Numbered from the stretch's first letter, positions 1,710 to 53,098 are shown. The stretch is 64,000 bases of DNA from Acutalibacteraceae bacterium (GCA_045598965.1 JAZRVH010000005.1:1289-65288), one strand, 5' to 3'. Translations and numbers: made by a program. Notes: generated by a model from the sequence alone, not told the origin.

Positions 1710-1968
1710 AAAAAAAGCCACTCGTCCCACGAAAGGGACGAATAGCCAAAACTATCCGCGGTGCCACCCAGTTTGCTCTAATAGAGCCGCTTTTAGGTTC
1801 ATGATAAAACCGCTCCGTTTAACGCACGGCAACGACGCCCCTACTGCCTTTGAAGGGTTCGGTTTGCAACTCGGAAGTGTTATTCGCCCGACCGCCACTG
1901 CGGACATTCCAGCATCGCCCACTCTCTTTGAGTGCGTGTTCGGGTTACTTGTCTTCGTCAATGTTTTT
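1710..1968 (-). promoter_or_regulatory. T-box leader with Asn specifier AAC and an intrinsic terminator, controlling asnS-asnA
   Basis: All motifs read on the minus strand. K-turn and GAAG lower stem. AGAGAG bulge. Specifier loop GAAUAACA followed by CUUC, with AAC at 1881..1879. T-box sequence GGGTGGCACCGCGG at 1756..1776. Terminator hairpin TCGTCCC/GGGACGA at 1722..1741 followed by a U-run at 1716..1710. Confidence 0.85.
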
Positions 1969-1981
1969 CACATATGCATCT

Positions 1982-2113: not shown

Positions 2114-2189
2114 TGGTGACCCGTACGGGATTCGAACCCATGTTGCTGGCGTGAGAGGCCAGAGTCTTAGACCACTTGACCAACGGGCC
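2114..2189 (-). tRNA. tRNA-Glu (anticodon CUC), CCA encoded
   Basis: Reverse complement is GGCCCGTTGGTCAAGTGGTCTAAGACTCTGGCCTCTCACGCCAGCAACATGGGTTCGAATCCCGTACGGGTCACCA. Anticodon stem CTGGC/GCCAG, loop CUCUCAC. GTTCGAATC T-loop. Confidence 0.9.
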
Positions 2190-2193
2190 ATAT

Positions 2194-2270
2194 TGGTACA
2201 CCATCAGGGACTCGAACCCTGGACACCCTGATTAAGAGTCAGGTGCTCTAGCCAACTGAGCTAATGGTGC
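2194..2270 (-). tRNA. tRNA-Lys (anticodon CUU), CCA encoded
   Basis: Reverse complement is GCACCATTAGCTCAGTTGGCTAGAGCACCTGACTCTTAATCAGGGTGTCCAGGGTTCGAGTCCCTGATGGTGTACCA. Anticodon loop CUCUUAA. Confidence 0.9.
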
Positions 2271-35485: not shown

Positions 35486-35742
35486 AAAAAAAGCCCTCGA
35501 CCCCAAAAATGGGGACGAAGGTCGAAACTCCGTGGTACCACCCCGATTTTTGTGCCGAAAAAGGCACAAACACTCGATAACGATAACGGGGTCACCGTCG
35601 CAGCCTACTTGCCGAAGATGGGTTCAGCCACGCCGCTCCAAAGTGAACTTCAGCACAGAAGCCCTCAAATCGCTTTCAGCCGGTGACGATTCTCTCTTTC
35701 GGGGGCGGGATTGTGCGTACTCTCTTTTTCTCAGCGTTTACA
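35486..35742 (-). promoter_or_regulatory. T-box leader with Phe specifier UUC and a terminator, controlling pheST
   Basis: All motifs read on the minus strand. K-turn CGCTGAGAAAAG, AGTA, and AGAGAG bulge. Specifier loop GAAGUUCA followed by CUUU, with UUC at 35647..35645. T-box sequence GGGGTGGTACCACGG at 35530..35544. Terminator hairpin and U-run at 35526..35486. Confidence 0.85.
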
Positions 35743-41284: not shown

Positions 41285-43144
41285 GTGTTTGCGGTGCTTA
41301 ACTCATTTTATTTGAAAAAAAGCGGTCAAAAGATTCTTTTGATCGTTCTTTTAGTGATGCTTCTTGTATTTTTGCTCATCACTTGTGTGGATTCCTCCAA
41401 CGAGCAAGTGGCTGTTTCGGGCAGCCACGAAACGTGGAATAAAGGCTGGTTGCTGGTGGATTCCACCGGAAACAGCCGACAGGTGGACTTGCCCCAAACG
41501 CAATCTTTCGGAAACGGAAGTGCCACGTTGTCCCGTGTGGTGGACAGCCGTGTGCAAAACACCGATGCAGTTTTGTATATTTGCTCAAAATATGAGGATA
41601 TCACCGTCACCTTGGGGAATACAGTCATTTATTCTTTCCCCAACGAGCACTCTGCCTTATCGGACGTCACCGGCATTACGAACCATATCGTTGATTTGCC
41701 GGAGGATGCAGTGGGGAAAGAACTTGCCATTCGTTACGATTTCCAATGCCATTCGGCAATGACGTATGAATTGCGTGCACCGGAATATGCCCAACGTGAA
41801 GTCATTTTGAATCGCACCGTTAAAGCCGCCATTCCGTTTTTCGTTATTTCTGTCGTGGTTGCCTTGGCGGGTCTTGTGGTCTTTTTAATGACCTTGCGTG
41901 TGCAAAACAACCAAACGCTCTCGAATACTTTTTGGAACATCGGCGTGTTTGCTTTGCTGTTTGCCGTGTTCCTCTGTATCCGTTCGCCCTTTGCACCGTA
42001 CCTGTTTGGTAATCCGCTCGGGCGGCATTTCCTCACTTATGCCATGGTGCTGTTAATGCCCATTCCGTTCATCAGTATGTTTTACGGAAGCACCGACGAG
42101 AAATACCGCAAATATCAGATTATTGCCGTGATTCTCAATTTCATAAACGCCGCTTTGCAAACGCTGCTTGCGTTGTTCGGTTTGGTGGATTTCCGCACCC
42201 TTTTACCGCTCACCTTGGCACTTTGCGTGTTTTCCATGGGCACCGTGCTGTGCGGCATTTATCGTTCGAAAAACCGTGGGGATGACGCCACCTGGATTGA
42301 TGACGCCGCCTTTTTGGTGGCTCTCGGTGCGGTGGTGGATTTGTTCCTTACCATCATCGGTCACCCGAGCTATTGCAGTTGCTTGCTGTATACCATTGGT
42401 GTATTGATTTTCCTTATTGCTCAATTCTCCTATTTTATGTATGCGTATTTCGGGCAATTCCGTACCAACGTGGAAACGATGTTGCTCAAAGAAATGGCGT
42501 ATAAAGATATGCTTACCGGTATCGGCAACCGTAACGCCTACGAGCTGTATCTTACGGATATTACCGCTCGTCCTCCCGGCGACCGGATGTATGGCTTGAT
42601 TGCAGATATCAACGATTTGAAACGCACTAACGACACCTACGGCCACGAGATGGGCGACACCATAATTGTGGAAGTGGGGGATATCCTCTTTAAGATTTTC
42701 GGCAAAAACGGCTCCTGCTTCCGTGTGGGCGGCGACGAGTTTGTTGCGTTCATCCGTGGTATGTCCTCGGAACAGATGGAACAGCATATTACGGAGTTTA
42801 AGGCGGAACTGGAGAAATACAACGAAGACCATACGCCACGTATCCGTGTTGCCTTGGGCTATGCGGAAACCGAACCGGATGATTATCGCAATATGAAGGC
42901 GTTTTTGCGTCGTATTGATAAGATGATGTATGAGGACAAACGTACCGGAAAAGCACTGGATAAGCTTCATGCGATGGAAAAAGAGTTAGATGATGAAGCG
43001 TTAAATGTGCAAGTGGAGTCCTCTTTTGCGGTTAGTTCGATTCCCGATACCCTCAATCAGCCGGTGGAGGAGATTAACGAATTTTCCGAGAATACCGAAC
43101 AATCCGACTCTTTATCCGAGGCCGACGCTTCGGATAAAGAATAA
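41285..43144 (+). CDS. Diguanylate cyclase: N-terminal extracytoplasmic domain, ~7 TM segments, then GGDEF
   Basis: Signal-anchor, a ~150-aa outside domain, and multiple TM segments (7TMR-DISM-like architecture, which is inferred). GGDEF domain: GIGNRNAY, GHEMGD, and an intact FRVGGDEFVAF. No RxxD I-site 5 aa upstream. The likely true start is the GVG at 41294. Confidence 0.8.
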   Translation: MFAVLNSFYLKKSGQKILLIVLLVMLLVFLLITCVDSSNEQVAVSGSHETWNKGWLLVDSTGNSRQVDLPQTQSFGNGSATLSRVVDSRVQNTDAVLYICSKYEDITVTLGNTVIYSFPNEHSALSDVTGITNHIVDLPEDAVGKELAIRYDFQCHSAMTYELRAPEYAQREVILNRTVKAAIPFFVISVVVALAGLVVFLMTLRVQNNQTLSNTFWNIGVFALLFAVFLCIRSPFAPYLFGNPLGRHFLTYAMVLLMPIPFISMFYGSTDEKYRKYQIIAVILNFINAALQTLLALFGLVDFRTLLPLTLALCVFSMGTVLCGIYRSKNRGDDATWIDDAAFLVALGAVVDLFLTIIGHPSYCSCLLYTIGVLIFLIAQFSYFMYAYFGQFRTNVETMLLKEMAYKDMLTGIGNRNAYELYLTDITARPPGDRMYGLIADINDLKRTNDTYGHEMGDTIIVEVGDILFKIFGKNGSCFRVGGDEFVAFIRGMSSEQMEQHITEFKAELEKYNEDHTPRIRVALGYAETEPDDYRNMKAFLRRIDKMMYEDKRTGKALDKLHAMEKELDDEALNVQVESSFAVSSIPDTLNQPVEEINEFSENTEQSDSLSEADASDKE

Positions 43145-43171
43145 GCGGGGCACGAGAAGGAGGCTACGCTT

Positions 43172-45289
43172 ATGTGGATGAAAGTATTGGAAAAGCTGGA
43201 TAATAACCGGCTTGCACGCATCATTCAAAACGCTTTGATGCTGGCATCACCGTTCCTTATTATCGGTACACTGGCAAAAATCATTTGTGATTTTCCCGTG
43301 GCGGCGTATACCGATTTTTTAACCTCGCTTTGGGGCGGTGCCATTTATGATGCGTTTCATTTGGTATATTCGTATACCTTTGGCAGTTTTTCGCTGATTT
43401 TGGCCATTACAATCGCCATCTCGTTCCGCAACATTATGGACCACGAGCGTTACGGTGTCTATCTGTTGACGGTTATGACGGCGTATATGTTGCTTCTATA
43501 CCAGGGGAAAGAAGGCTTTACCGCCGAGATGTTCCAGCCACTTTATGCGTTGGCGGCGGTGGTCATTTCGCTGCTCATCTGTATTGGGCTATATTACGTT
43601 ATTCGTTTTAGCGACCGTTATACGCTTGCTCCCTCGGAAATTTCCGGCGACAAACGGTTCCACAGCTCTTTTGTGATGTGGCTGGCGGTTGGCTTGTTCT
43701 TAGCCATGGTGGCGGGTATTCGTATTGCTCTCAATGCGTTATTCGGTGATACCGGCACGTTTTTGAACCTTGTGAAAACCTTTATCCGTGCCGTGTTTCC
43801 GCAGGGAACTACCGCTTCCTACGGCAACGCTTTGTTGTTTGTATTTCTGTCGGGAATACTTTGGTATATCGGTATTCCGGCGGATGAGGTGTTGGCGGAT
43901 GTACGGGAACGGGTGTTTGATTTGAATCCAAACGGCGTCAACCTGCTGGATATCAGCGGGGCAGACGGCTTCACCGATACGTTCTTCAATGTCTTTGTTC
44001 AGTTGGGCGGTTGCGGAAGTGCCATTTGTTTGGTTTTGGCTTTGCTGATTGCATCCAAAGAGCAATACACTCGCCGACAAGGCGGCATACTGTTTGTTCC
44101 TACATTTTTCAACTTCGGTCAAACGGCATTGTTTTCGGTTCCGGTGTTTTTCAGCCCGATTTTGCTTATCCCGTTTATCTGCACACCCATCATTTTGTTT
44201 ATTTCCTCAACATTCTTTACGCTTTTGGGGTTTGTGCCGCCGGTTATAAACGAAATCAACCCGATGATGCCGATTGGTCTCTCCGCATTTTTTGCCACGG
44301 AATCGTGGCGTGGCGTGGTGTTGCAGATTTTCAACCTTGCTTTGGGCACCGTGATTTACATCCCGTTTGTACGGTTGCTTGGAAAACCGCGGCACTATCT
44401 GTTGCAATCCCGTGTCAAGGAATTGACCGAAATCGTCAAAGAGGGAGAGCGAGTCGGTGCGGTGCCGGAGCTTCTTAAAGGCGATAAGGAAATTAACCGT
44501 GCCGCCAAACGACTGCTCGCTGATATGTATGATGCGGTGACTCGTGACGAGGTGACTTTGTACTATCAGCCCCAGGTCAATATTGATGAAGAAATCATCG
44601 GTGCGGAAGGTCTTTTCCGCTTTAACCATCCCACGTGCGGATTTATTTATCCGCCGCTTGCCATTCATTTGGCAAAAGAGGACGGCTATGTCAATCAGTT
44701 AACCTTGCGGCTGATTGACCGTGCCTGCGAGGATTTGGAGACGCTCGCCGCCGAGGGCTGCGAAAACTTCAAATTATCGGTCAACATTCTGCCCATGCAG
44801 TTGGAGGACGAAAACTTCGCCAAAAAAATCAAAGACCGCATTGATGCCCACGATTTCGGCAGCTGTTCTCTTGCATTGGAGGTCACCGAGCAGGATGCGT
44901 TGGTTGCCATGCCGTTTGTGGAATCCTCTATGAATGACTTGAAACAAATCGGTGTCGATCTTATTATGGACGACTTTGGTATGGGACATAGTTCGATGAC
45001 CACGATGCAGAAAAACAAGTTCAATTTTGTGAAATTGGACGGCAACTTGGTGAAAGACTTGCTCAGTAACGAACGTTCTGCGGATATCGTACAGGCTGTT
45101 TGCCGTCTTGCCGACAAACTGGAATTCCAGATTATTGCGGAATACGTGGAAACCGAGGAACAACGAGAGCGGTTAAACGAGTTGGGGTGCGAAATTTATC
45201 AGGGATACTTGTATAGTAAAGCACTTCCGTTTAATGAATTTCTTGATTTTTGGCGGGAAAACACCCGCAAAAAACGAAAAAAATCCTAA
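43172..45289 (+). CDS. PTS EIIC-like membrane domain fused to an EAL c-di-GMP phosphodiesterase domain
   Basis: The N-terminal ~420 aa are polytopic, with a lactose/cellobiose-EIIC-like signature FNFGQTALFSVPVFFSPILLIPFICTPII. The C-terminal EAL domain carries YYQPQ, EGLFR, SVNILP, EVTE, DDFGMGHSS, KLDG, EYVETEE and YQGY. Confidence 0.75.
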   Translation: MWMKVLEKLDNNRLARIIQNALMLASPFLIIGTLAKIICDFPVAAYTDFLTSLWGGAIYDAFHLVYSYTFGSFSLILAITIAISFRNIMDHERYGVYLLTVMTAYMLLLYQGKEGFTAEMFQPLYALAAVVISLLICIGLYYVIRFSDRYTLAPSEISGDKRFHSSFVMWLAVGLFLAMVAGIRIALNALFGDTGTFLNLVKTFIRAVFPQGTTASYGNALLFVFLSGILWYIGIPADEVLADVRERVFDLNPNGVNLLDISGADGFTDTFFNVFVQLGGCGSAICLVLALLIASKEQYTRRQGGILFVPTFFNFGQTALFSVPVFFSPILLIPFICTPIILFISSTFFTLLGFVPPVINEINPMMPIGLSAFFATESWRGVVLQIFNLALGTVIYIPFVRLLGKPRHYLLQSRVKELTEIVKEGERVGAVPELLKGDKEINRAAKRLLADMYDAVTRDEVTLYYQPQVNIDEEIIGAEGLFRFNHPTCGFIYPPLAIHLAKEDGYVNQLTLRLIDRACEDLETLAAEGCENFKLSVNILPMQLEDENFAKKIKDRIDAHDFGSCSLALEVTEQDALVAMPFVESSMNDLKQIGVDLIMDDFGMGHSSMTTMQKNKFNFVKLDGNLVKDLLSNERSADIVQAVCRLADKLEFQIIAEYVETEEQRERLNELGCEIYQGYLYSKALPFNEFLDFWRENTRKKRKKS

Positions 45290-45296
45290 AAACCCG

Positions 45297-45325
45297 TTGA
45301 CAAACGAAAAAGAAAGTGCTATTCT
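45297..45325 (+). promoter_or_regulatory. Sigma-A promoter for the third T-box leader
   Basis: TTGACA (45297..45302), 17-nt spacer, TGcTATTCT (-10 hexamer at 45320..45325). Confidence 0.5.
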
Positions 45326-45354
45326 TTCTCTTGTTAAGAATAGAATACCTATAT

Positions 45355-45619
45355 AAAGGCGATGACGAAGACGGTTAAAACGTCCACGTTTTCAGAGAGT
45401 CGGCGGTTGCTGTGAGCCGACAACAGTACGCTTTAACAATCCCTTCCGAGCCGAAGTCCCGAACGTGGGTTTTCCCATCAGTAGACGGCTTCCGTATTTG
45501 CTGCGTGAAGGCAACGGGCTTGTTGGAGCCTATTGAGGTGGCGTCGTTTGACGCAATTTGAGTGGTATCGCGGGATTTACATCTCGTCTCAAAGGAAACT
45601 TTGAGACGAGATTTTTTTA
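45355..45619 (+). promoter_or_regulatory. T-box leader (probable Ile specifier AUC) with an intrinsic terminator
   Basis: - K-turn: GGCGATGACGAAG pairs with CTTCCGAGCC.
- Mid stem: GTTAAAACG / CGCTTTAAC.
- AGAGAG bulge and distal loop GGTTGCTGTGA.
- The triplet immediately 5' of the closing CUUC is AUC (45439..45441).
- T-box sequence AATTTGAGTGGTATCGCGGGA at 45556..45576.
- Terminator: ATCTCGTCTCAAAG / CTTTGAGACGAGAT (45581..45612) plus T7. Confidence 0.8.
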
Positions 45620-45647
45620 TGAGTATTTTTACAAAGGAGGTCTTTTT

Positions 45648-47948
45648 ATGTCCGCAGAAACGTTTGTTGTTGCCGAAAAATTGAAAGAGGTGGCACAGCG
45701 AATTCGTGCCGTGCGTGAGGACGTGGGTATCGCCATTGATGATATGGCGGAACGCACCGGTGTTTCGGTTGAGGAATATCGACAGATCGAAGCGGGCGAG
45801 ACCGACTTCGGGTTTACCTTTGTATACAAATTCTCCCAGGTTTGCGGCATTGAAATTACCGATATCATGGAGGGCAACAGCCCGATTTTAACAAACTATA
45901 CGGTTACCCGTCGTGGCGGTGGATTGCATTTCACTCGTATGGAAGGCTACACGTATCACCACTTGGCTCCTATGTTCAAGCACAAGATTGCCGAGCCGTT
46001 TTACGTGGAAATTCCGTATTCTGCCGAAGCGTTGATGGCACCCGCTCACCTCTGTGTCCACAAGGGGCAGGAGTTTGATGTGGTGGTTAAGGGAACGGTT
46101 AAAATTCAAATCGGCGACCATCACGAAATCCTCCACGAGGGCGACAGCATCTATTATGACAGCTCCACGCCGCACGACTTGGTGGCAATGAACGGAGAAG
46201 ACGCCACCATTTACGCCGTAGTTATGAGCCCCAACACCGCCGATGTGGGACAGTATGAAAAAGCGGTGTCGATGCCGTCGGTCACCAATGTGGAAAAAGC
46301 CAATCTCACAAACCCGATTTACGCCCGTTTCATTGACGAAAAAGTGGAAAACGGTCATTTAACTTCCATTGCCTTCAAGAATGTGGATTCTTTCAACTTT
46401 GCCTTTGACGTGGTGGACGAATTGGCAAAAAAATGTCCCCAAAAAACGGCCATGCTCCACGTTTCTGCGGACAAAACCGCCCGCACCTTTACGTTCAAAG
46501 ATATGAGCGAGATGTCGGCGAAAACCGCCAACTATTTCCGTTCTCTGGGCATCAAAAAAGGCGATCGTGTGATGCTCGTTTTACGCCGAAATTATCAGTT
46601 CTGGTTTTGTATGCTGGCACTTCATAAATTGGGTGCCATCGTCATTCCCGCTACCGACCTTTTAACCGAACACGATTTCACCTATCGTTTTGATGCGGCG
46701 GGAGTATCCGCTATCGTATGCAGTGGTGACAGTGCGGTTTCTGAGCAGGTGGATTTAGCCGCCAAAAACAGTAAAGCCTTGCGACTTAAAGTGTTGACCA
46801 ACGGCAAACGAGAAGGCTGGCACGATTTCGATGCCGAAATGCCGGCGTTTTCCGATGTCTTCCCCCGCACAGAGGATTCCTGCGGCGGCAAAGACCCGCT
46901 TCTTATGTTCTTTACGTCCGGTACAACCGGCTATCCCAAAATCGCCATGCACAACCATCTGTATCCGTTAGGCCATTTTATTACTGCCAAATACTGGCAT
47001 AACGTTGACCCCAACGGATTGCACTTTACCGTTGCCGATACCGGTTGGGGAAAAGCTCTTTGGGGTAAACTGTATGGGCAATGGCTGTGTGAAGCGGGCG
47101 TTTTCACCTACGACTTTGCCAAATTTGATGCGTCCGACGTTTTGCCGATGCTTGCCAAGTACAATATTACCACCTTCTGTGCTCCGCCTACCATTTATCG
47201 TTTCTTTATCAAAGAAAACTTACAAGCCTACGATTTGACTTCGGTGAAATACGCCACCGTTGCCGGCGAAGCCCTCAACCCCGAGGTGTTTAATCAATTC
47301 TTAAAAGGCACCGGTGTGCCGCTGATGGAGGGCTTTGGACAAACGGAAACCACCCTTACCGTCGGAAACTTCGTGGGTCAACCGATTAAATCCGGTTCTA
47401 TGGGAAAACCGAGTCCGCTGTATAACGTGGACATTTTGCTTCCCGACGGAACTCCCGCCAAGGTGGGTGAGGTCGGTGAGATTGTGGTTCGTACCGAAAA
47501 CGGAGCTCCGTGCGGTCTGTTTGCCGGTTACTACAACGATGAACAAAACACCAACGCCGTCTGGCACGACGGTTGCTATCACACCGGCGACACGGCATGG
47601 AGAGACCAGGACGGTTTCTTCTTCTATGTCGGACGGGTGGATGATTTGATTAAATCGTCCGGCTACCGTATCGGGCCGTTTGAGATTGAAAGCGTGCTGA
47701 TGCAGCTGCCTTATGTGCTGGAGTGTGCCGTTACTGCCGCACCGGACGAAATTCGTGGTCAAGTGGTTAAAGCCACGATTGTGTTGACCAAAGACCGTCT
47801 TCCCAGCGAGGAGCTGAAGAAAGAAATCCAAACCTACGTGAAAAAGAATACCGCACCGTACAAGTATCCACGTATTGTGGAGTTCCGCCAAGAGCTTCCG
47901 AAAACCATCAGCGGTAAAATCCGCCGTGTGGAGCTACGGGAAGAATAA
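45648..47948 (+). CDS. Fusion protein: XRE-type HTH plus cupin (PuuR-like module) fused to an AMP-forming acyl-CoA ligase (ACSM/MACS-like)
   Basis: 766 aa from the ATG at 45648, after AAAGGAGG.
- HTH: IAIDDMAERTGVSVEEYRQIEAGE.
- Cupin: HKGQEFDVVVKGTVKIQIGDHHEILHEGDSIYYDSSTPH.
- Adenylation motifs: FFTSGTTGYPK, GYGQTE-like GFGQTET, YHTGDTAWRDQDGFFFYVGRVDD, SSGYRIGPFEIE, and PKTISGKIRR. Confidence 0.8.
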   Translation: MSAETFVVAEKLKEVAQRIRAVREDVGIAIDDMAERTGVSVEEYRQIEAGETDFGFTFVYKFSQVCGIEITDIMEGNSPILTNYTVTRRGGGLHFTRMEGYTYHHLAPMFKHKIAEPFYVEIPYSAEALMAPAHLCVHKGQEFDVVVKGTVKIQIGDHHEILHEGDSIYYDSSTPHDLVAMNGEDATIYAVVMSPNTADVGQYEKAVSMPSVTNVEKANLTNPIYARFIDEKVENGHLTSIAFKNVDSFNFAFDVVDELAKKCPQKTAMLHVSADKTARTFTFKDMSEMSAKTANYFRSLGIKKGDRVMLVLRRNYQFWFCMLALHKLGAIVIPATDLLTEHDFTYRFDAAGVSAIVCSGDSAVSEQVDLAAKNSKALRLKVLTNGKREGWHDFDAEMPAFSDVFPRTEDSCGGKDPLLMFFTSGTTGYPKIAMHNHLYPLGHFITAKYWHNVDPNGLHFTVADTGWGKALWGKLYGQWLCEAGVFTYDFAKFDASDVLPMLAKYNITTFCAPPTIYRFFIKENLQAYDLTSVKYATVAGEALNPEVFNQFLKGTGVPLMEGFGQTETTLTVGNFVGQPIKSGSMGKPSPLYNVDILLPDGTPAKVGEVGEIVVRTENGAPCGLFAGYYNDEQNTNAVWHDGCYHTGDTAWRDQDGFFFYVGRVDDLIKSSGYRIGPFEIESVLMQLPYVLECAVTAAPDEIRGQVVKATIVLTKDRLPSEELKKEIQTYVKKNTAPYKYPRIVEFRQELPKTISGKIRRVELREE

Positions 47949-47965
47949 GAGAAGGGGAGAGAGCT

Positions 47966-49441
47966 ATGCGTAAAAGCGGAATGTTGTTGCCGATATTCTC
48001 GTTGCCGTCAAACTACGGTATCGGAACATTCGGAAACGCCGCCTATACGTTTGTGGATTTTTTGGCCGCCGCCGGACAAAGCCTTTGGCAAATTTTGCCT
48101 TTAGGCCCTACCGGCTACGGTCATTCGCCCTATCAATCCGATTCCACCTTTGCCGGAAACCCTCTTTTTATTGATTTGGATTTGCTCATTAAGGACGGTT
48201 TGTTGACCGAGCGAGAATGCAACGCCTTTACGTGGGGAGAAACCCCGCATTTCGTGGATTATGAGCGGGTGAAGGCTTACCGCCCTCTTTTATTCAAAAC
48301 CGCATTTTCCCGTTTTTTTGAGGCTTTACCGCCCGATTATGCCGCCTTTTGTGAGGCGGAGAGTGAATGGCTTTCCGATTACGCCTTATTCTGTACGCTT
48401 AAAGATGCCCACAACGGTCAAAGCTGGCAAGAGTGGGAACCCCCGTATCGTGACCGCCACGAAGAAGCTATGGCGTCTTTTGCTTTGGCACACAAAACGG
48501 AATTGGACTATTACAAAATGCTCCAGTATCTTTTCTTCAGACAATGGCGAGCCTTAAAAGCCCGTGCCAACGCCAAAGGAATTGATATTTTAGGGGATTT
48601 ACCCATTTATGTAGCTATGGACTCCGCCGACGTATGGAGCCATCGGGAATTGTTTGCCTTAAACGCCGAGGGACATCCCACCGAGGTCTCTGGTTGTCCT
48701 CCGGATGCGTTTTCCGAGGATGGTCAAAAGTGGGGAAATCCCGTCTATCACTGGACAGCACTAAAGGATACCGATTATGCTTGGTGGAAAGCCCGTGTCC
48801 GTCACGCCTGCACACTGTTTGATCTGATACGCATTGACCATTTCCGTGGATTTGAGTCTTACTATTGCATTCCGGCAGACGCCGAAAACGCCAAAATCGG
48901 CGTTTGGCGAAAAGGCCCCGGAATGGATTTATTCCGCTCTTTAGAAGAGGAAATGGGAAAACTGCCCTTCATTGCCGAAGATTTGGGATTTTTAACTCCG
49001 GCTGTGTATGAGCTTCTCGCCGAAAGCGGATATCCCGGTATGCGGGTGATGCAATTCGCCTTTGCGGATGTGTACGGCGACAGCAGTTATTTGCCCCATA
49101 ACTTTATCGTAAACTGCGTGGCGTATACCGGCACCCACGATAACGACACCATTTTAGGGTGGGCACGCACAGCACGGCAGGACGAATGGGATTTTGCCGC
49201 CCATTATTTAGACATTCAATCCCGTGAGGAAGCCCCGCAGGGAATGCTGAAAGCCCTGCTTTCGTCCCGGGCGGATACGGTGATATCCCAAGGGCAGGAT
49301 TGGCTCGAAAAAGGAAGCGAAGCCCGCATTAACACCCCCGGCACCACCGAGGGAAACTGGTGCTTTAGAGTCGTTGACGGCGACTTTTCCGACGACATTG
49401 CCGTAAAGGCACTTGACCTTACACGCTTGTATCGCCGCTAA
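47966..49441 (+). CDS. malQ: 4-alpha-glucanotransferase (amylomaltase, GH77)
   Basis: 491 aa. MRKSGMLLPIFSLPSNYGIGTFG, LGPTGYGHSPYQS, IRIDHFRGF and GTHDNDT. It starts 17 nt after the ligase stop. Confidence 0.9.
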   Translation: MRKSGMLLPIFSLPSNYGIGTFGNAAYTFVDFLAAAGQSLWQILPLGPTGYGHSPYQSDSTFAGNPLFIDLDLLIKDGLLTERECNAFTWGETPHFVDYERVKAYRPLLFKTAFSRFFEALPPDYAAFCEAESEWLSDYALFCTLKDAHNGQSWQEWEPPYRDRHEEAMASFALAHKTELDYYKMLQYLFFRQWRALKARANAKGIDILGDLPIYVAMDSADVWSHRELFALNAEGHPTEVSGCPPDAFSEDGQKWGNPVYHWTALKDTDYAWWKARVRHACTLFDLIRIDHFRGFESYYCIPADAENAKIGVWRKGPGMDLFRSLEEEMGKLPFIAEDLGFLTPAVYELLAESGYPGMRVMQFAFADVYGDSSYLPHNFIVNCVAYTGTHDNDTILGWARTARQDEWDFAAHYLDIQSREEAPQGMLKALLSSRADTVISQGQDWLEKGSEARINTPGTTEGNWCFRVVDGDFSDDIAVKALDLTRLYRR

Positions 49442-49502
49442 ACGGCGTACGATAAATTATGCTTCAAAAAACCAACGGATAAGAAACGGAGGATTTTACT
49501 TT

Positions 49503-52500
49503 ATGGCGTTGTACAACAAGGTTTCCACAGATATGAACTTCGTGGAACGAGAAAAGAAAATCGAGGCATTTTGGAAAGAGAAGGATATCTTCCAAAAGAG
49601 CATTGAAGAGCGTAAAGGGGCAGACCCTTACGTGTTTTTTGATGGTCCGCCGACGGCAAACGGCAAGCCTCACATCGGTCACGTGCTGACCCGTGTTATC
49701 AAGGATATGATTCCTCGCTATCGCACGATGAAAGGCTATGAGGTTCCCCGTAAAGCCGGCTGGGATACGCACGGTCTTCCGGTTGAGCTGGAGGTGGAAA
49801 AGCTTCTCGGTCTTGATGGAAAAGAGCAAATCGAGGAATACGGTCTCGAACCGTTCATCGAAAAATGTAAAGAGTGCGTTTGGAAATATAAGGGAATGTG
49901 GGAGGATTTCTCCTCGTCGGTCGGCTTTTGGGCCGATATGGACAACCCGTATATTACTTACGACAACAACTTTATTGAGTCCGAGTGGTGGGCATTAAAA
50001 CAGATTTGGGAAAAGGGTCTTTTGTACAAAGGCTATAAGATTGTCCCGTATTGCCCCCGCTGCGGAACCCCGCTGTCTTCTCACGAAGTGGCTCAGGGCT
50101 ACAAGGATGTGAAAGAGCGTTCGGCGGTGGTTCGCTTTAAGGTCAAAGGGGAGGATGCCTACTTCCTTGCCTGGACAACAACCCCGTGGACGCTTCCGTC
50201 GAACGTGGCACTGTGCGTCAACCCGAATGAGACCTATGTGAAGGTGAAAAAGGACGAGTACACCTACTACATGGCGGAGGCATTGGTTGCCACCGTTCTC
50301 GGTGAGGGTGCAAAAATCCTCGAATCTTTCAAGGGAAAAGACCTCGAATACAAAGAGTATGAACCGCTGTTCGATTTTGTCAATCCCAACAAAAAATGCT
50401 ATTTTGTCACCTGCGACACCTATGTCACCTTGACCGACGGTACCGGCGTGGTACATATCGCTCCGGCGTTTGGTGAGGATGACTCGGTTGTCGGCAGAAA
50501 CTATGACCTGCCGTTTGTCCAACTGGTGGACGGCAAGGGCGAAATGACGAAAGAAACGCCGTGGGCGGGGATGTTCTGCAAAACAGCCGATAAAGAGGTG
50601 CTGATTGACCTCGAAAAACGTGGCTTATTGTTCTCTGCACCGGTGTTTGAACACAGCTATCCGCACTGCTGGCGTTGCGACACGCCGCTCATTTACTACG
50701 CCCGTGACTCGTGGTTTATCCGCATGACCGACGTTAAGGATGATCTCATTAAGAACAACAACACCGTCAACTGGATTCCGGAGAGCATCGGCAAGGGTCG
50801 TTTCGGCGACTGGCTGGAAAATGTGCAGGATTGGGGCATCAGCCGTAACCGTTATTGGGGCACACCGCTCAACATTTGGGAATGCGAGTGCGGCCATCGT
50901 CACGCCATCGGCAGCATTGAGGAACTGAAAGAAATGTCCGATAACTGCCCGGATGAAATCGAACTGCACCGTCCGTATATCGACGCCGTCACCATTAAAT
51001 GCCCGAAATGCAGCAAACCGATGAAACGTGTGCCGGAGGTTATTGATTGCTGGTTCGACTCCGGTTCTATGCCTTTTGCCCAACACCATTACCCGTTTGA
51101 AAACAAGGATTTGTTTGAGGCTCAATTCCCGGCAGATTTCATCTCGGAGGCGGTGGACCAAACCCGTGGCTGGTTCTATTCATTGCTCGCCATTTCCACG
51201 CTTCTCTTCAACAAAGCCCCGTATAAAAACGTTATCGTTCTTGGTCTTGTGCAAGATGAAAACGGTCAAAAGATGTCCAAATCAAAGGGCAACGCCGTTG
51301 ACCCGTTTGACGCCTTACAAAAATACGGTGCGGATGCCATTCGTTGGTATTTCTATATCAACTCCGCCCCGTGGCTTCCGAACCGCTTCCACGACAAGGC
51401 GGTAGTCGAGGGACAACGTAAATTCCTCGGAACGCTGTGGAACACGTATGCGTTCTACACGCTGTATGCGAACATCGACAACTTTGACCCGACGAAACAA
51501 AAGGCAGATAAAGCGAGCTTGTCCGTGATGGATAAATGGCTCAATTCCCGCCTCAACACCCTTATCCATGAGGTGGACGACTATCTTGGTAATTATTGTA
51601 TTCCCGAGGCCGCCAGAGCCCTTCAAAGCTTTGTGGATGATTTGAGCAACTGGTATGTTCGCCGTTGCCGTGAACGCTATTGGGTAGCAGGGATGCCGCA
51701 GGATAAAATCAATGCGTATGCCACCTTATATAACGCCCTTGTCACGGTATGCAAGTTGGCGGCTCCTATGATTCCGTTTATGAGCGAGGATATCTACCAA
51801 AATCTCGTGTGCAACCTCGATAAATCCGCTCCGGAAAGCATTCACCTTTGTGCCTATCCGGTAGCCGACGATACCGCCATTGATAAGGACTTGGAAGCAA
51901 ATATGCAACGTGTCCTTGACGTGGTGGTACTGGGTCGTGCCGCCCGTAACGGTGCCAACCTCAAAAACCGTCAGCCGCTGTCGAAAATGATTGTGTCTGC
52001 CGACGGCGAGATTCCGGAGCTGTTCTTAAACGTTATTGCCGAGGAACTGAACGTCAATGCGGTGGAACAAAAAGAGGATATGAGCGAGTTTATGAGCTAC
52101 AGCTTTAAGCCGCAGCTTAAAACCGTCGGCCCGAAATTCGGCCCGAAACTGGGCGAAATCCGCTCGGTTCTTCCGACGATTGACGGCAACGCCGCCAAAG
52201 CGGAGCTCGACAAAAATGGTGCCTTGAAGCTCAACCTGCCGTCCGGCGAAATCACGCTTCTTGAGGAGGATTTGCTGATTGACATCGCTTCGAAAGAAGG
52301 CTATTTCCCGCTTTCCGACAACGGCGTTACGGTGGCACTGTGCACCGAATTGACGCCGGAGCTGATTGAGCAAGGTCTTGTGCGTGAACTGGTCAGCAAA
52401 ATCCAAACGATGCGTAAAGAAGCCGGCTTTGAGGTGACTGACCACATTGCCGTGTCTTTTGCGGGCAGCGAAACGGCGTTGGCAATTGCCGAGAAATACA

Positions 52501-52619
52501 AAGATTCCCTCGCCGCCGACGTGCTGGCGGATGTCGTTTCTTTCGATGGGGCAGACGGCTTCACCAAAGAATGGGATGTCAACGGCGAAAACGTCACCAT
52601 CGGCGTGAAAAAGCAATAA
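49503..52619 (+). CDS. ileS: isoleucine--tRNA ligase (long, type-2-like form)
   Basis: 1038 aa from the ATG at 49503. HIGH motif PTANGKPHIGH, KMSKS motif QKMSKSKGN, and Zn-cysteines CPRCGT / CWRCDT. Only a 61-nt gap separates it from malQ, and it has no leader of its own. Confidence 0.93.
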   Translation: MALYNKVSTDMNFVEREKKIEAFWKEKDIFQKSIEERKGADPYVFFDGPPTANGKPHIGHVLTRVIKDMIPRYRTMKGYEVPRKAGWDTHGLPVELEVEKLLGLDGKEQIEEYGLEPFIEKCKECVWKYKGMWEDFSSSVGFWADMDNPYITYDNNFIESEWWALKQIWEKGLLYKGYKIVPYCPRCGTPLSSHEVAQGYKDVKERSAVVRFKVKGEDAYFLAWTTTPWTLPSNVALCVNPNETYVKVKKDEYTYYMAEALVATVLGEGAKILESFKGKDLEYKEYEPLFDFVNPNKKCYFVTCDTYVTLTDGTGVVHIAPAFGEDDSVVGRNYDLPFVQLVDGKGEMTKETPWAGMFCKTADKEVLIDLEKRGLLFSAPVFEHSYPHCWRCDTPLIYYARDSWFIRMTDVKDDLIKNNNTVNWIPESIGKGRFGDWLENVQDWGISRNRYWGTPLNIWECECGHRHAIGSIEELKEMSDNCPDEIELHRPYIDAVTIKCPKCSKPMKRVPEVIDCWFDSGSMPFAQHHYPFENKDLFEAQFPADFISEAVDQTRGWFYSLLAISTLLFNKAPYKNVIVLGLVQDENGQKMSKSKGNAVDPFDALQKYGADAIRWYFYINSAPWLPNRFHDKAVVEGQRKFLGTLWNTYAFYTLYANIDNFDPTKQKADKASLSVMDKWLNSRLNTLIHEVDDYLGNYCIPEAARALQSFVDDLSNWYVRRCRERYWVAGMPQDKINAYATLYNALVTVCKLAAPMIPFMSEDIYQNLVCNLDKSAPESIHLCAYPVADDTAIDKDLEANMQRVLDVVVLGRAARNGANLKNRQPLSKMIVSADGEIPELFLNVIAEELNVNAVEQKEDMSEFMSYSFKPQLKTVGPKFGPKLGEIRSVLPTIDGNAAKAELDKNGALKLNLPSGEITLLEEDLLIDIASKEGYFPLSDNGVTVALCTELTPELIEQGLVRELVSKIQTMRKEAGFEVTDHIAVSFAGSETALAIAEKYKDSLAADVLADVVSFDGADGFTKEWDVNGENVTIGVKKQ

Positions 52620-52641: not shown

Positions 52642-52670
52642 TTGCCAAACGGATACTTTTCCGTTATAAT
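52642..52670 (+). promoter_or_regulatory. Sigma-A promoter for yajC
   Basis: TTGCCA (52642..52647), 17-nt spacer, TATAAT (52665..52670). Confidence 0.6.
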
Positions 52671-52699: not shown

Positions 52700-53098
52700 A
52701 TGCAATTTTCCAATTTGATTTTGGCGGCAACCACTGCCGCCGCTAAATCCGCCGCCAACGGTCAACAAGAGGTGCCGTGGTGGTATCAGTATTCGTCCAT
52801 TATCATGCTCATTTTCATCTTTGTAGTGATGTATTTTCTGCTGATTCGTCCGCAGAGAAAGCGTGAAAAAGAAGAGCAGAAAATGCGTAACGACCTGCGG
52901 GTTGGTGACGAGATTGTCACCATCGGCGGTATCATTTGCCGTGTGGTCAACGTCAAAGAAGACCTCATCATTGTGGAAACCGGTGCCGACCGTACGAAGC
53001 TGACTCTGAAAAAATGGGCAGTGCAGACAAACGAAACCGTCCACGATGCCCCGCTGGATGACGACGATGACGATTTCGACGACGATGACGATATCTAA
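52700..53098 (+). CDS. yajC: Preprotein translocase subunit YajC, with a poly-Asp C-terminal tail
   Basis: 132 aa. TM segment followed by YFLLIRPQRKREKEEQKMRNDLRVGDEIVTIGGIICRVV. Tail sequence DDDDDDFDDDDDI. Confidence 0.85.
   Translation: MQFSNLILAATTAAAKSAANGQQEVPWWYQYSSIIMLIFIFVVMYFLLIRPQRKREKEEQKMRNDLRVGDEIVTIGGIICRVVNVKEDLIIVETGADRTKLTLKKWAVQTNETVHDAPLDDDDDDFDDDDDI

Follow-up and report, generated by a model that had tools for sequence, protein, structure and literature searches.

A T-box leader at 45353..45619 on the plus strand of a 64,000-nucleotide (nt) stretch of Acutalibacteraceae DNA (the window) precedes a gene that fuses an XRE-type helix-turn-helix (HTH), a cupin and an acyl-CoA synthetase of the medium-chain type (the ligase), followed by malQ and ileS. 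The evidence favors a model in which this leader is a transcription-attenuating T-box that would respond to tRNA-Ile, belonged ancestrally to a ligase serving the conversion of 2-methylbutyrate to isoleucine, and has captured ileS, with malQ as a passenger; the probability of the model as a whole is about 0.72. The promoter and RNA elements of the leader are as follows, with Stem I taken from the covariance-model alignment.

45297..45325, plus strand: sigma-70-type promoter, TTGACA, 17-nt spacer, extended -10 element TGcTATTCT, scoring 10/12.
45353..45619, plus strand: complete T-box leader with Stem I, Stem II, IIA/B, Stem III and antiterminator/terminator.
45359..45451, plus strand: Stem I.
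45359..45360 with 45450..45451, plus strand: Stem I base helix, G45359-C45360 with G45450-C45451.
45361..45365, plus strand: K-turn GAUGA with CGA opposite, aligned with high posterior probability.
45367..45370 with 45443..45446, plus strand: Stem I lower helix, GAAG with CUUC.
45394..45399, plus strand: AGAGAG bulge, aligned with high posterior probability.
45400..45424, plus strand: Stem I distal hairpin, loop GGUUGCUGUGA, aligned with high posterior probability.
45439..45441, plus strand: specifier codon AUC (Ile), followed by C45442, in a loop without a loop-E/S-turn.
45555..45594, plus strand: T-box sequence and antiterminator, UUUGAG (45557..45562) pairing with CUCAAA (45588..45593).
45563..45569, plus strand: 7-nt antiterminator bulge UGGUAUC, whose UGGU (45563..45566) is predicted to pair with ACCA at the 3′ end of the tRNA.
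45581..45612, plus strand: intrinsic terminator hairpin, 14-bp stem and GAAA loop, with a U7 tract to 45619.

The RNA elements of a T-box are directly observed in this leader. A preliminary description, made from the sequence alone, had placed a canonical T-box at 45355..45619 and proposed a covariance-model scan; the scan agrees with it, as the leader matches RF00230 at 45353..45594 (plus strand) over all 219 model positions with 96.9 bits (curated gathering score 93 bits, E 4.8e-20), and both the terminator and the antiterminator are found. The predicted antiterminator has a folding energy of -10.1 kcal/mol and the expected 7-nt bulge, the terminator has a folding energy of -22.5 kcal/mol (z = -7.3), and the two compete for a common strand (45581..45594). 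Overall, the leader has the RF00230 score, Stem I platform, specifier and antiterminator/terminator of a T-box; the loop-E/S-turn and a purine after the codon are absent.

The comparison set consists of 80 loci encoding relatives of the fusion protein (59-68% identity) and five closer loci, cited here by L numbers; altogether, 88 fusion-gene copies were examined, 80 leaders were read for their specifier, and 73 leaders were aligned. A T-box core, GAGUGGUACCGCG, lies 80 to 280 nt upstream of 73 of the 88 copies, in Oscillospirales-type genomes, and a profile built from the ligase leaders recovers all of these leaders, scoring the window's own at 214 bits (nhmmer). Moreover, the TTGACA(A)-17-TGnTAnnnT promoter layout is present upstream of nearly all 79 homologous leaders, including those of L086, L082 and L081. 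An A/T-rich tract also lies upstream of TTGACAA-17-TGnTATAAT in nearly all leaders, and in one subclade of about 27 loci (for example, L043:7620-7660) a conserved transcribed box, AAATTTGAATATCACAAA, is located between the -10 element and Stem I; its counterpart in the window (45326..45352) is weak.

Across the 73 aligned leaders, the T-box sequence AAUUUGAGUGGUACCGCG is nearly invariant, the window's version (AAUUUGAGUGGUAUCGCG) having one substitution relative to the family, and 27 of the 42 pairs called by RNAalifold show compensatory changes. The lower part of Stem I is missing from the RNAalifold result for the whole alignment and was judged instead by an explicit pair count in the same alignment, and the minimum free energy fold of the window's Stem I as a single sequence is non-canonical (z = -0.1). 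In the pair count, the closing (lower) helix is paired in 99.7% of cases and three of its four pairs change on both sides, giving the variants GAAG/CUUC, GAGG/CCUC, GAAA/UUUC and GGAG/CUCC. The distal helix covaries as well (for example, UA in 45 leaders and CG in 28). When the 3′ partners of the ten Stem I pairs under test were shifted by -3 to +3 columns, the paired cells fell from 91% to 29-61%.

At its gathering threshold, Rfam reports no T-box in L081, L082, L086, L087, L088 and L089, including two leaders that precede ileS. Reading this silence as proof that no leader is there was rejected, since the family-profile search and direct reading show the leaders. Because the leaders of L081, L082, L086 and L087 all fall under the cut-off, the low Rfam score is a trait of the ligase-leader family, and annotation pipelines would likely overlook this subclass of T-boxes without an S-turn.

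The specifier reading is robust, and points to isoleucine. The preliminary description had derived AUC from the position of the specifier codon relative to the closing helix of Stem I in the window's two other T-boxes, and had suggested comparing orthologous leaders at 45439..45441; both routes lead to the same codon. In particular, AUC occupies the covariance-model columns that hold AAC in the asnS leader and UUC in the pheS leader. When the closing helix sets the register, 65 of the 80 homologous leaders have AUC as the triplet, 12 have GUA and one has CUC, with two unclear. The bases on either side vary, the one after AUC being A in 38 leaders, C in 23, G in three and U in one, so that AUC is the only conserved triplet among the 65 orthologous leaders; in that register, UAUCAC or CAUCAC is the sequence of most leaders. 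In L089, a genuine leader of ileS likewise has AUC followed by C.

The specifier loop itself is atypical. In the window, GUUA pairs with AAC as a helix and AAC takes the place of the GAA S-turn, and across the ligase-leader family this four-pair helix covaries at all four pairs. The preliminary description was correct that the GAA S-turn is missing and that C follows the codon; it had entered them as a caveat, and they are not defects, since both are traits of the family. Two features of the leader do count against the model: no loop-E motif is present in the specifier loop, although functional importance is ascribed to this motif in the tyrS and glyQS T-boxes (PMC2879506), and the U at 45568 in the T-box bulge (UGGUAUC instead of UGGUACC) is unique to the window among the 73 aligned leaders, the window's closest relative, L086, having C there. 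Together with the short loop, the C after the codon and a score just 4 bits over the Rfam cut-off, these features would fit a decaying, non-functional T-box or a leader that senses another tRNA through the same AAUCCC stretch, Ser (UCC) or Pro (CCC). Both possibilities are very remote. The Ser and Pro readings were rejected because only AUC is conserved, UCC and CCC being conserved nowhere in the family; UGGU predicts a discriminator base A73, which fits the Ile, Val and Leu tRNAs and excludes tRNA-Ser, whose discriminator is G73. Decay is at odds with helices that all covary across the 73 leaders and with an intact terminator, and a low Rfam score is common to the clade leaders L081, L082, L086 and L087.

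The genes behind the leader are the following.

45648..47948, plus strand: XRE-HTH, cupin and medium-chain acyl-CoA synthetase fusion, 766 amino acids (aa), start ATG at 45648.
47966..49441, plus strand: malQ, 4-alpha-glucanotransferase, 491 aa, PF02446 (Glyco_hydro_77) 591 bits.
49442..49502, plus strand: malQ-ileS spacer, 61 nt, with a ribosome binding site (GGAGG) and without a leader, promoter-like or terminator-like site.
49503..52619, plus strand: ileS, type-2 isoleucyl-tRNA synthetase (IleRS), 1038 aa, DUF5915 C-terminus.

As the preliminary description had it, the leader precedes the fusion gene instead of an aminoacyl-tRNA synthetase gene, and the Pfam domains of 45648..47948 confirm the fusion (HTH_3, Cupin_2, AMP-binding [PF00501, 197.6 bits] and AMP-binding_C [PF13193, 75 bits]). 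Its gap lengths (17 nt between the ligase gene and malQ, and 61 nt between malQ and ileS) are exact. Its statement that no hairpin terminator and no second leader separate the genes also holds: scans found no terminator-like or promoter-like site in either gap, and an Rfam scan of 47800..49700, even at E <= 10, found neither a T-box nor any other credible RNA. Likewise, asnS and pheST each have a T-box of their own, the Rfam matches lying at 1731..1970 (AAC) and 35508..35741 (UUC). The malQ assignment exceeds the cut-offs of NF011080 (628 vs 477 bits) and TIGR00217 (343 vs 206 bits), and the ileS assignment that of TIGR00392 (975 vs 621.4 bits). IleRS reaches 1041 bits with the MupA model and 1011 bits with the MupB model, under their cut-off of 1900; judged by its sequence, it is a chromosomal type-2 enzyme (the MupA/MupB-like form) and not a named resistance gene, which makes mupirocin unsuitable as a probe of this system.

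The distribution of the genes indicates that the T-box is primarily the leader of the ligase family, and that ileS is a lineage-specific addition. Neither malQ nor ileS lies beside the fusion gene in any of the 80 loci, and at 68-69% identity the fusion gene is a T-box-led monocistron. The ligase-(malQ)-ileS order is found only in the window's own clade, where four more loci show it, drawn from three or more other assemblies: L086 is from one assembly and L081 from a different one, and L082 and L087 are from two ENA metagenome assemblies that share a project. L086, whose IleRS is 93% identical, repeats the window's order of GGDEF, EIIC-EAL, T-box, ligase, malQ and ileS. L082 and L087 have the T-box, ligase, malQ and ileS with gaps of 27 and 36 nt and of 27 and 25 nt, respectively. 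In L081, ileS follows the T-box and ligase directly after 15 nt, without malQ. Overall, the intergenic gaps in these four loci range from 15 to 67 nt, and the leaders score 182 to 217 bits against the ligase-leader profile. Outside the clade, L088 and L089 (IleRS 77% identical) each carry an ileS with its own AUC T-box, and against the ligase-leader profile these leaders give 31 bits for L088 and no score for L089.

By this comparison, ileS appears to have joined the ligase's leader in one lineage and to have lost its own; since related ileS genes outside the clade keep a T-box, the loss of the leader coincides with capture by another Ile T-box. Because it is missing from L081, malQ seems to be a passenger of the operon, either a later arrival or lost in L081. 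The preliminary claim of one leader shared by all three genes is supported, as the order recurs in four clade loci, with the corrections that the leader is primarily the ligase's and that malQ is probably a passenger.

Not every fusion gene has such a leader, and some features of the operon speak against control of ileS by it. A Ruminococcus clade carries the fusion gene without a T-box upstream (L003, L006, L007, L009, L016, L017, L018, L022, L027, L032, L037 and L044). In the window and L086, a hairpin (CGCCG-CUAAA-CGGCG, 49431..49451) covers the stop codon of malQ, and an internal promoter in malQ or in the ligase gene could still drive ileS. The T-box might control only the ligase, or the ligase and malQ, while ileS is transcribed from its own promoter in malQ or in the 61-nt spacer. 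An essential gene such as ileS needs basal expression, and an ileS promoter could go unrecognised by the promoter scan, which was a consensus search only. We consider this arrangement unlikely. No promoter-like site lies in or near the malQ-ileS spacer; the promoter before the T-box is conserved in the clade, whereas the spacer, compared with the 36 nt of L082 and the 25 nt of L087, is conserved only in its ribosome binding site. The spacers of the clade measure 15 to 67 nt, ileS of L081 begins 15 nt after the ligase stop codon, and the hairpin on the malQ stop codon has no run of U behind it and is not shared by L082 and L087. Related ileS genes outside the clade each have an Ile T-box, so the loss of this leader coincides with capture by another Ile T-box.

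Turning to the function of the ligase, the best NCBIfam model of its sequence is MbcS (NF047394, 432.2 bits), a 2-methylbutyrate/isobutyrate CoA synthetase (PMC10026030). The ligase domain aligns end to end with MacsMa (PDB 3ETC) over 523 columns at 55% identity (E 1.7e-198), including LPKTISGKIRR and SGYR/SGYK, so that the catalytic Lys motif PKTxSGKIxR is kept. MacsMa prefers 2-methylbutyrate and also adenylates propionate to octanoate (PMC10455477). Further evidence comes from the leaders. Where the fusion gene is duplicated in tandem, one copy has an Ile leader and the second a Val (GUA) leader, and the Val-linked copies form their own clade. Three alignment columns split the Ile-linked from the Val-linked proteins: T57/A and K61/R, both in the HTH region, and G468/A, the only such column in the ligase domain. 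G468 lies in the segment DTGW-G-KALW, four residues N-terminal to the substrate-pocket Trp that corresponds to Trp259 of MacsMa (numbered by the offset of the SGYK motif; PMC10455477), and the MacsMa residue at this position is also Gly.

Val-type ligases are further linked to candidate genes for the remaining steps. In L025, L053, L058, L065 and L076, the Val-type ligase gene is followed by a gene for a P-loop protein and then by the alpha (POR_N/PFOR_II), beta (TPP_enzyme_C) and gamma (POR) subunits of a 2-oxoacid:ferredoxin oxidoreductase. In L053, L065 and L076, an open reading frame for a ferredoxin-like 2x[4Fe-4S] delta subunit can be read in the spacer between the P-loop gene and alpha, and a class-IV aminotransferase gene follows the cluster. 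In L069 (10322-10601), a ligase-type T-box leader directly precedes an operon of P-loop, oxidoreductase, aminotransferase and LeuA-like genes; its specifier is ambiguous, as UGCAUCUCC allows GCA plus U as well as AUC without a spacer. When the neighbouring genes of 85 loci were clustered, no family was conserved throughout, the largest being present in 8 loci, so guilt by association rests on a subset of loci.

Two side observations concern the same gene neighbourhoods. The P-loop protein (220 aa, with weak CbiA/ParA-like matches) always follows a Val-type ligase (L076:10265-10927, L025, L035, L053, L055, L057, L058 and L065), and its gene precedes the delta subunit where the oxidoreductase is present. 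Separately, Leu (CUC) T-boxes, most of them with the canonical GAA S-turn, precede a LeuA-like gene (HMGL-like and LeuA_dimer, about 479 aa) in L043:3410-7584, L061:241-5289, L050:2617-7573, L071 and L075, and on the minus strand in L005 and L074. The LeuA-like gene is followed by a fusion of about 820 aa between a xylose-isomerase-like TIM barrel and an AMP-binding ligase, and often by an Amidohydro_2 gene; these operons adjoin the Ile-T-box ligase.

Taken together, the Ile and Val leaders, the oxidoreductase/aminotransferase clusters, the similarities to MacsMa and MbcS, and Gly468 make activation of 2-methylbutyrate for isoleucine synthesis, which the preliminary description had offered as speculation, the best-supported function. 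The enzyme is probably a 2-methylbutyrate--CoA ligase, a substrate preference that we infer from the 55% identity to MacsMa, the Ile and Val leaders, and Gly468. The metabolic direction would be biosynthetic and reductive, because the oxidoreductase/aminotransferase operon is predicted to be induced under Val starvation. A catabolic role, or a reverse reaction of the ligase that yields ATP, was considered and rejected, as induction under Ile starvation argues against both.

Several points tell against this functional assignment. The ligase falls well short of the MbcS equivalog cut-off (432 vs 850 bits), and by its sequence it is an MbcS relative and not an MbcS equivalog. Homologues of the oxidoreductase, aminotransferase, P-loop and LeuA-like genes are absent from the window and from L081-L089 by tblastn. 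The 2-methylbutyrate model also does not account for the HTH-cupin module. The ligase could instead supply branched primers for anteiso/iso fatty acids, or activate propionate for 2-oxobutyrate, and so spare or feed isoleucine with no direct reductive carboxylation of 2-methylbutyryl-CoA; for the stand-alone gene, primer supply may still be a role. Fatty-acid primer supply is the documented role of MbcS (PMC10026030, PMC11167679), the best NCBIfam model of the ligase; MacsMa accepts propionate among its substrates (PMC10455477); and the window itself has no oxidoreductase. The leaders make either variant improbable. Ruminococci do use branched acids for lipids as well as for amino acids, a point in favor of primer supply, but amino-acid-specific leaders, Ile on one paralogue and Val on the other, are hard to square with lipid synthesis, and a Val-linked paralogue is left unexplained by propionate. 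Further, the Val-type leader heads an operon with the oxidoreductase and, in three loci, the aminotransferase, and inducing this operon during Val starvation would defeat its purpose if it ran in the direction that consumes Val.

A role for the HTH-cupin module can be suggested tentatively. The fusion protein might be a BirA-like combination of enzyme and transcription factor that senses the branched acid, its acyl-adenylate or the amino acid, and binds DNA; control would then have two layers, and the Ile/Val/Leu T-box set would mark the branched-chain volatile fatty acid assimilation genes of Oscillospirales. We regard this extension as doubtful, if far from negligible. The two layers would be demand, read through tRNA charging by the T-box without an S-turn, and supply, read by the protein, with the AAATTTGAATATCACAAA box, or the oxidoreductase, aminotransferase and transporter genes, as candidate targets. 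The HTH-cupin module weakly resembles stand-alone XRE-cupin regulators (1Y9Q, E 3e-4), and a k-mer search for an HTH operator returned only promoter elements and one conserved, non-palindromic transcribed box.

In the proposed mechanism of T-box control by tRNA-Ile, transcription would start at the promoter 45297..45325. When tRNA-Ile is charged, the terminator (45581..45612) would form and transcription would stop before the genes. When it is uncharged, its anticodon (GAU) would pair with AUC (45439..45441) in Stem I and its free ACCA end with UGGU (45563..45566), stabilising the antiterminator, and RNA polymerase would then read into the three-gene operon; we infer this tRNA response, and the read-through into malQ and ileS, from the arrangement of the elements and genes. 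The leader's ancestral partner, a MacsMa/MbcS-type ligase, would convert exogenous 2-methylbutyrate to 2-methylbutyryl-CoA, which a 2-oxoacid:ferredoxin oxidoreductase would reductively carboxylate, and transamination of the product would yield isoleucine. In the window's clade, one Ile sensor would raise both the salvage ligase and IleRS, because ileS appears to have lost its own leader and come to lie behind the ligase gene.

The system differs in several respects from those already described. With classical RF00230 T-boxes, such as the B. subtilis tyrS and ileS leaders, the leader shares the K-turn, AG bulge, distal-loop platform, Stem II with its S-turn, IIA/B, Stem III, the conserved T-box sequence with its UGGN bulge, the competing antiterminator and terminator, and a codon that a single base separates from the Stem I closing helix after it. 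Unlike them, it has a covarying 4-bp helix in place of the specifier loop-E/S-turn and belongs to a family with a pyrimidine often after the codon and with most members under the Rfam gathering cut-off; it also regulates an acyl-CoA synthetase fusion and not a synthetase, a classical biosynthetic gene or a transporter. In the B. subtilis cysE-cysS operon, one T-box governs an amino-acid supply gene and the downstream cognate synthetase, and the window has the same succession behind one T-box. Here, however, the amino acid is Ile instead of Cys, the supply gene is a salvage ligase, malQ lies in between, and the arrangement is confined to one small clade.

The window's ligase keeps the SGYK motif, PKTxSGKIxR and the Trp259 equivalent of the Methanosarcina acetivorans enzyme MacsMa (3ETC); unlike it, the window protein is bacterial, has about 245 extra N-terminal residues (XRE-HTH and cupin) and is under predicted T-box control. 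S. aureus MbcS, in contrast to the window protein, has no HTH-cupin module and serves fatty-acid primer supply; we know of no T-box for it.

Three branched acids, isobutyrate, 2-methylbutyrate and isovalerate, are needed or used by cellulolytic ruminococci and by many Clostridia of the gut. In physiological and isotopic work of the 1960s, Allison, Bryant and Robinson are said to have found that rumen anaerobes reductively carboxylate these branched-chain volatile fatty acids to valine, isoleucine and leucine, respectively. The same route, from acid to acyl-CoA, by a ferredoxin-dependent step to the 2-oxoacid, and on to the amino acid, is predicted for the window's ligase family, here from genes and sequences. 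The fusion-gene family, which has more than 592 hits in GTDB genomes, occurs in Ruminococcus flavefaciens SAb67 (L008) and in many metagenome-assembled genomes from rumen and gut; its stand-alone form is present in SAb67 and in Neglectibacter timonensis SN17. In this one ligase family, amino-acid-specific T-boxes serve as functional labels that come with the genes, and the labelled ligases are linked to a ferredoxin oxidoreductase in five loci and also to an aminotransferase in three of those; this provides a candidate gene assignment for the conversion of branched short-chain acids to amino acids, which could find use in metabolic models of the rumen and gut. Moreover, the leaders form a large T-box subclass whose specifier loop presumably works without loop-E and which the Rfam threshold largely misses. 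The window's clade also offers a case of operon evolution in which an essential synthetase gene appears to have given up its own leader to ride on a neighbour's leader of the same specificity. In the literature library that was searched, no paper links a T-box to the acyl-CoA ligase fusion family, and none assigns genes or their regulation to the branched-acid activation step; as far as searched, the regulated family, its Ile and Val labels, the link to the oxidoreductase and aminotransferase, the subclass without an S-turn and the capture of ileS are new.

Several neighbouring features complete the description of the window. No terminator follows ileS; a strong promoter-like site (TTGCCA-17-TATAAT, 11/12) at 52642..52670 lies between ileS and a gene at 52702..53098, a similar site is present in L081, where the corresponding gene behind ileS encodes a YajC domain. 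At 41285..45289, directly upstream of the T-box promoter, are the genes for a GGDEF protein and for a 705-aa PTS_EIIC::EAL fusion, the gene for the latter being conserved in L086 and L081. Finally, the asnS T-box leader has genes for tRNA-Lys(CUU) and tRNA-Glu(CUC) (2114..2270, minus strand) immediately upstream of it and on its own strand.

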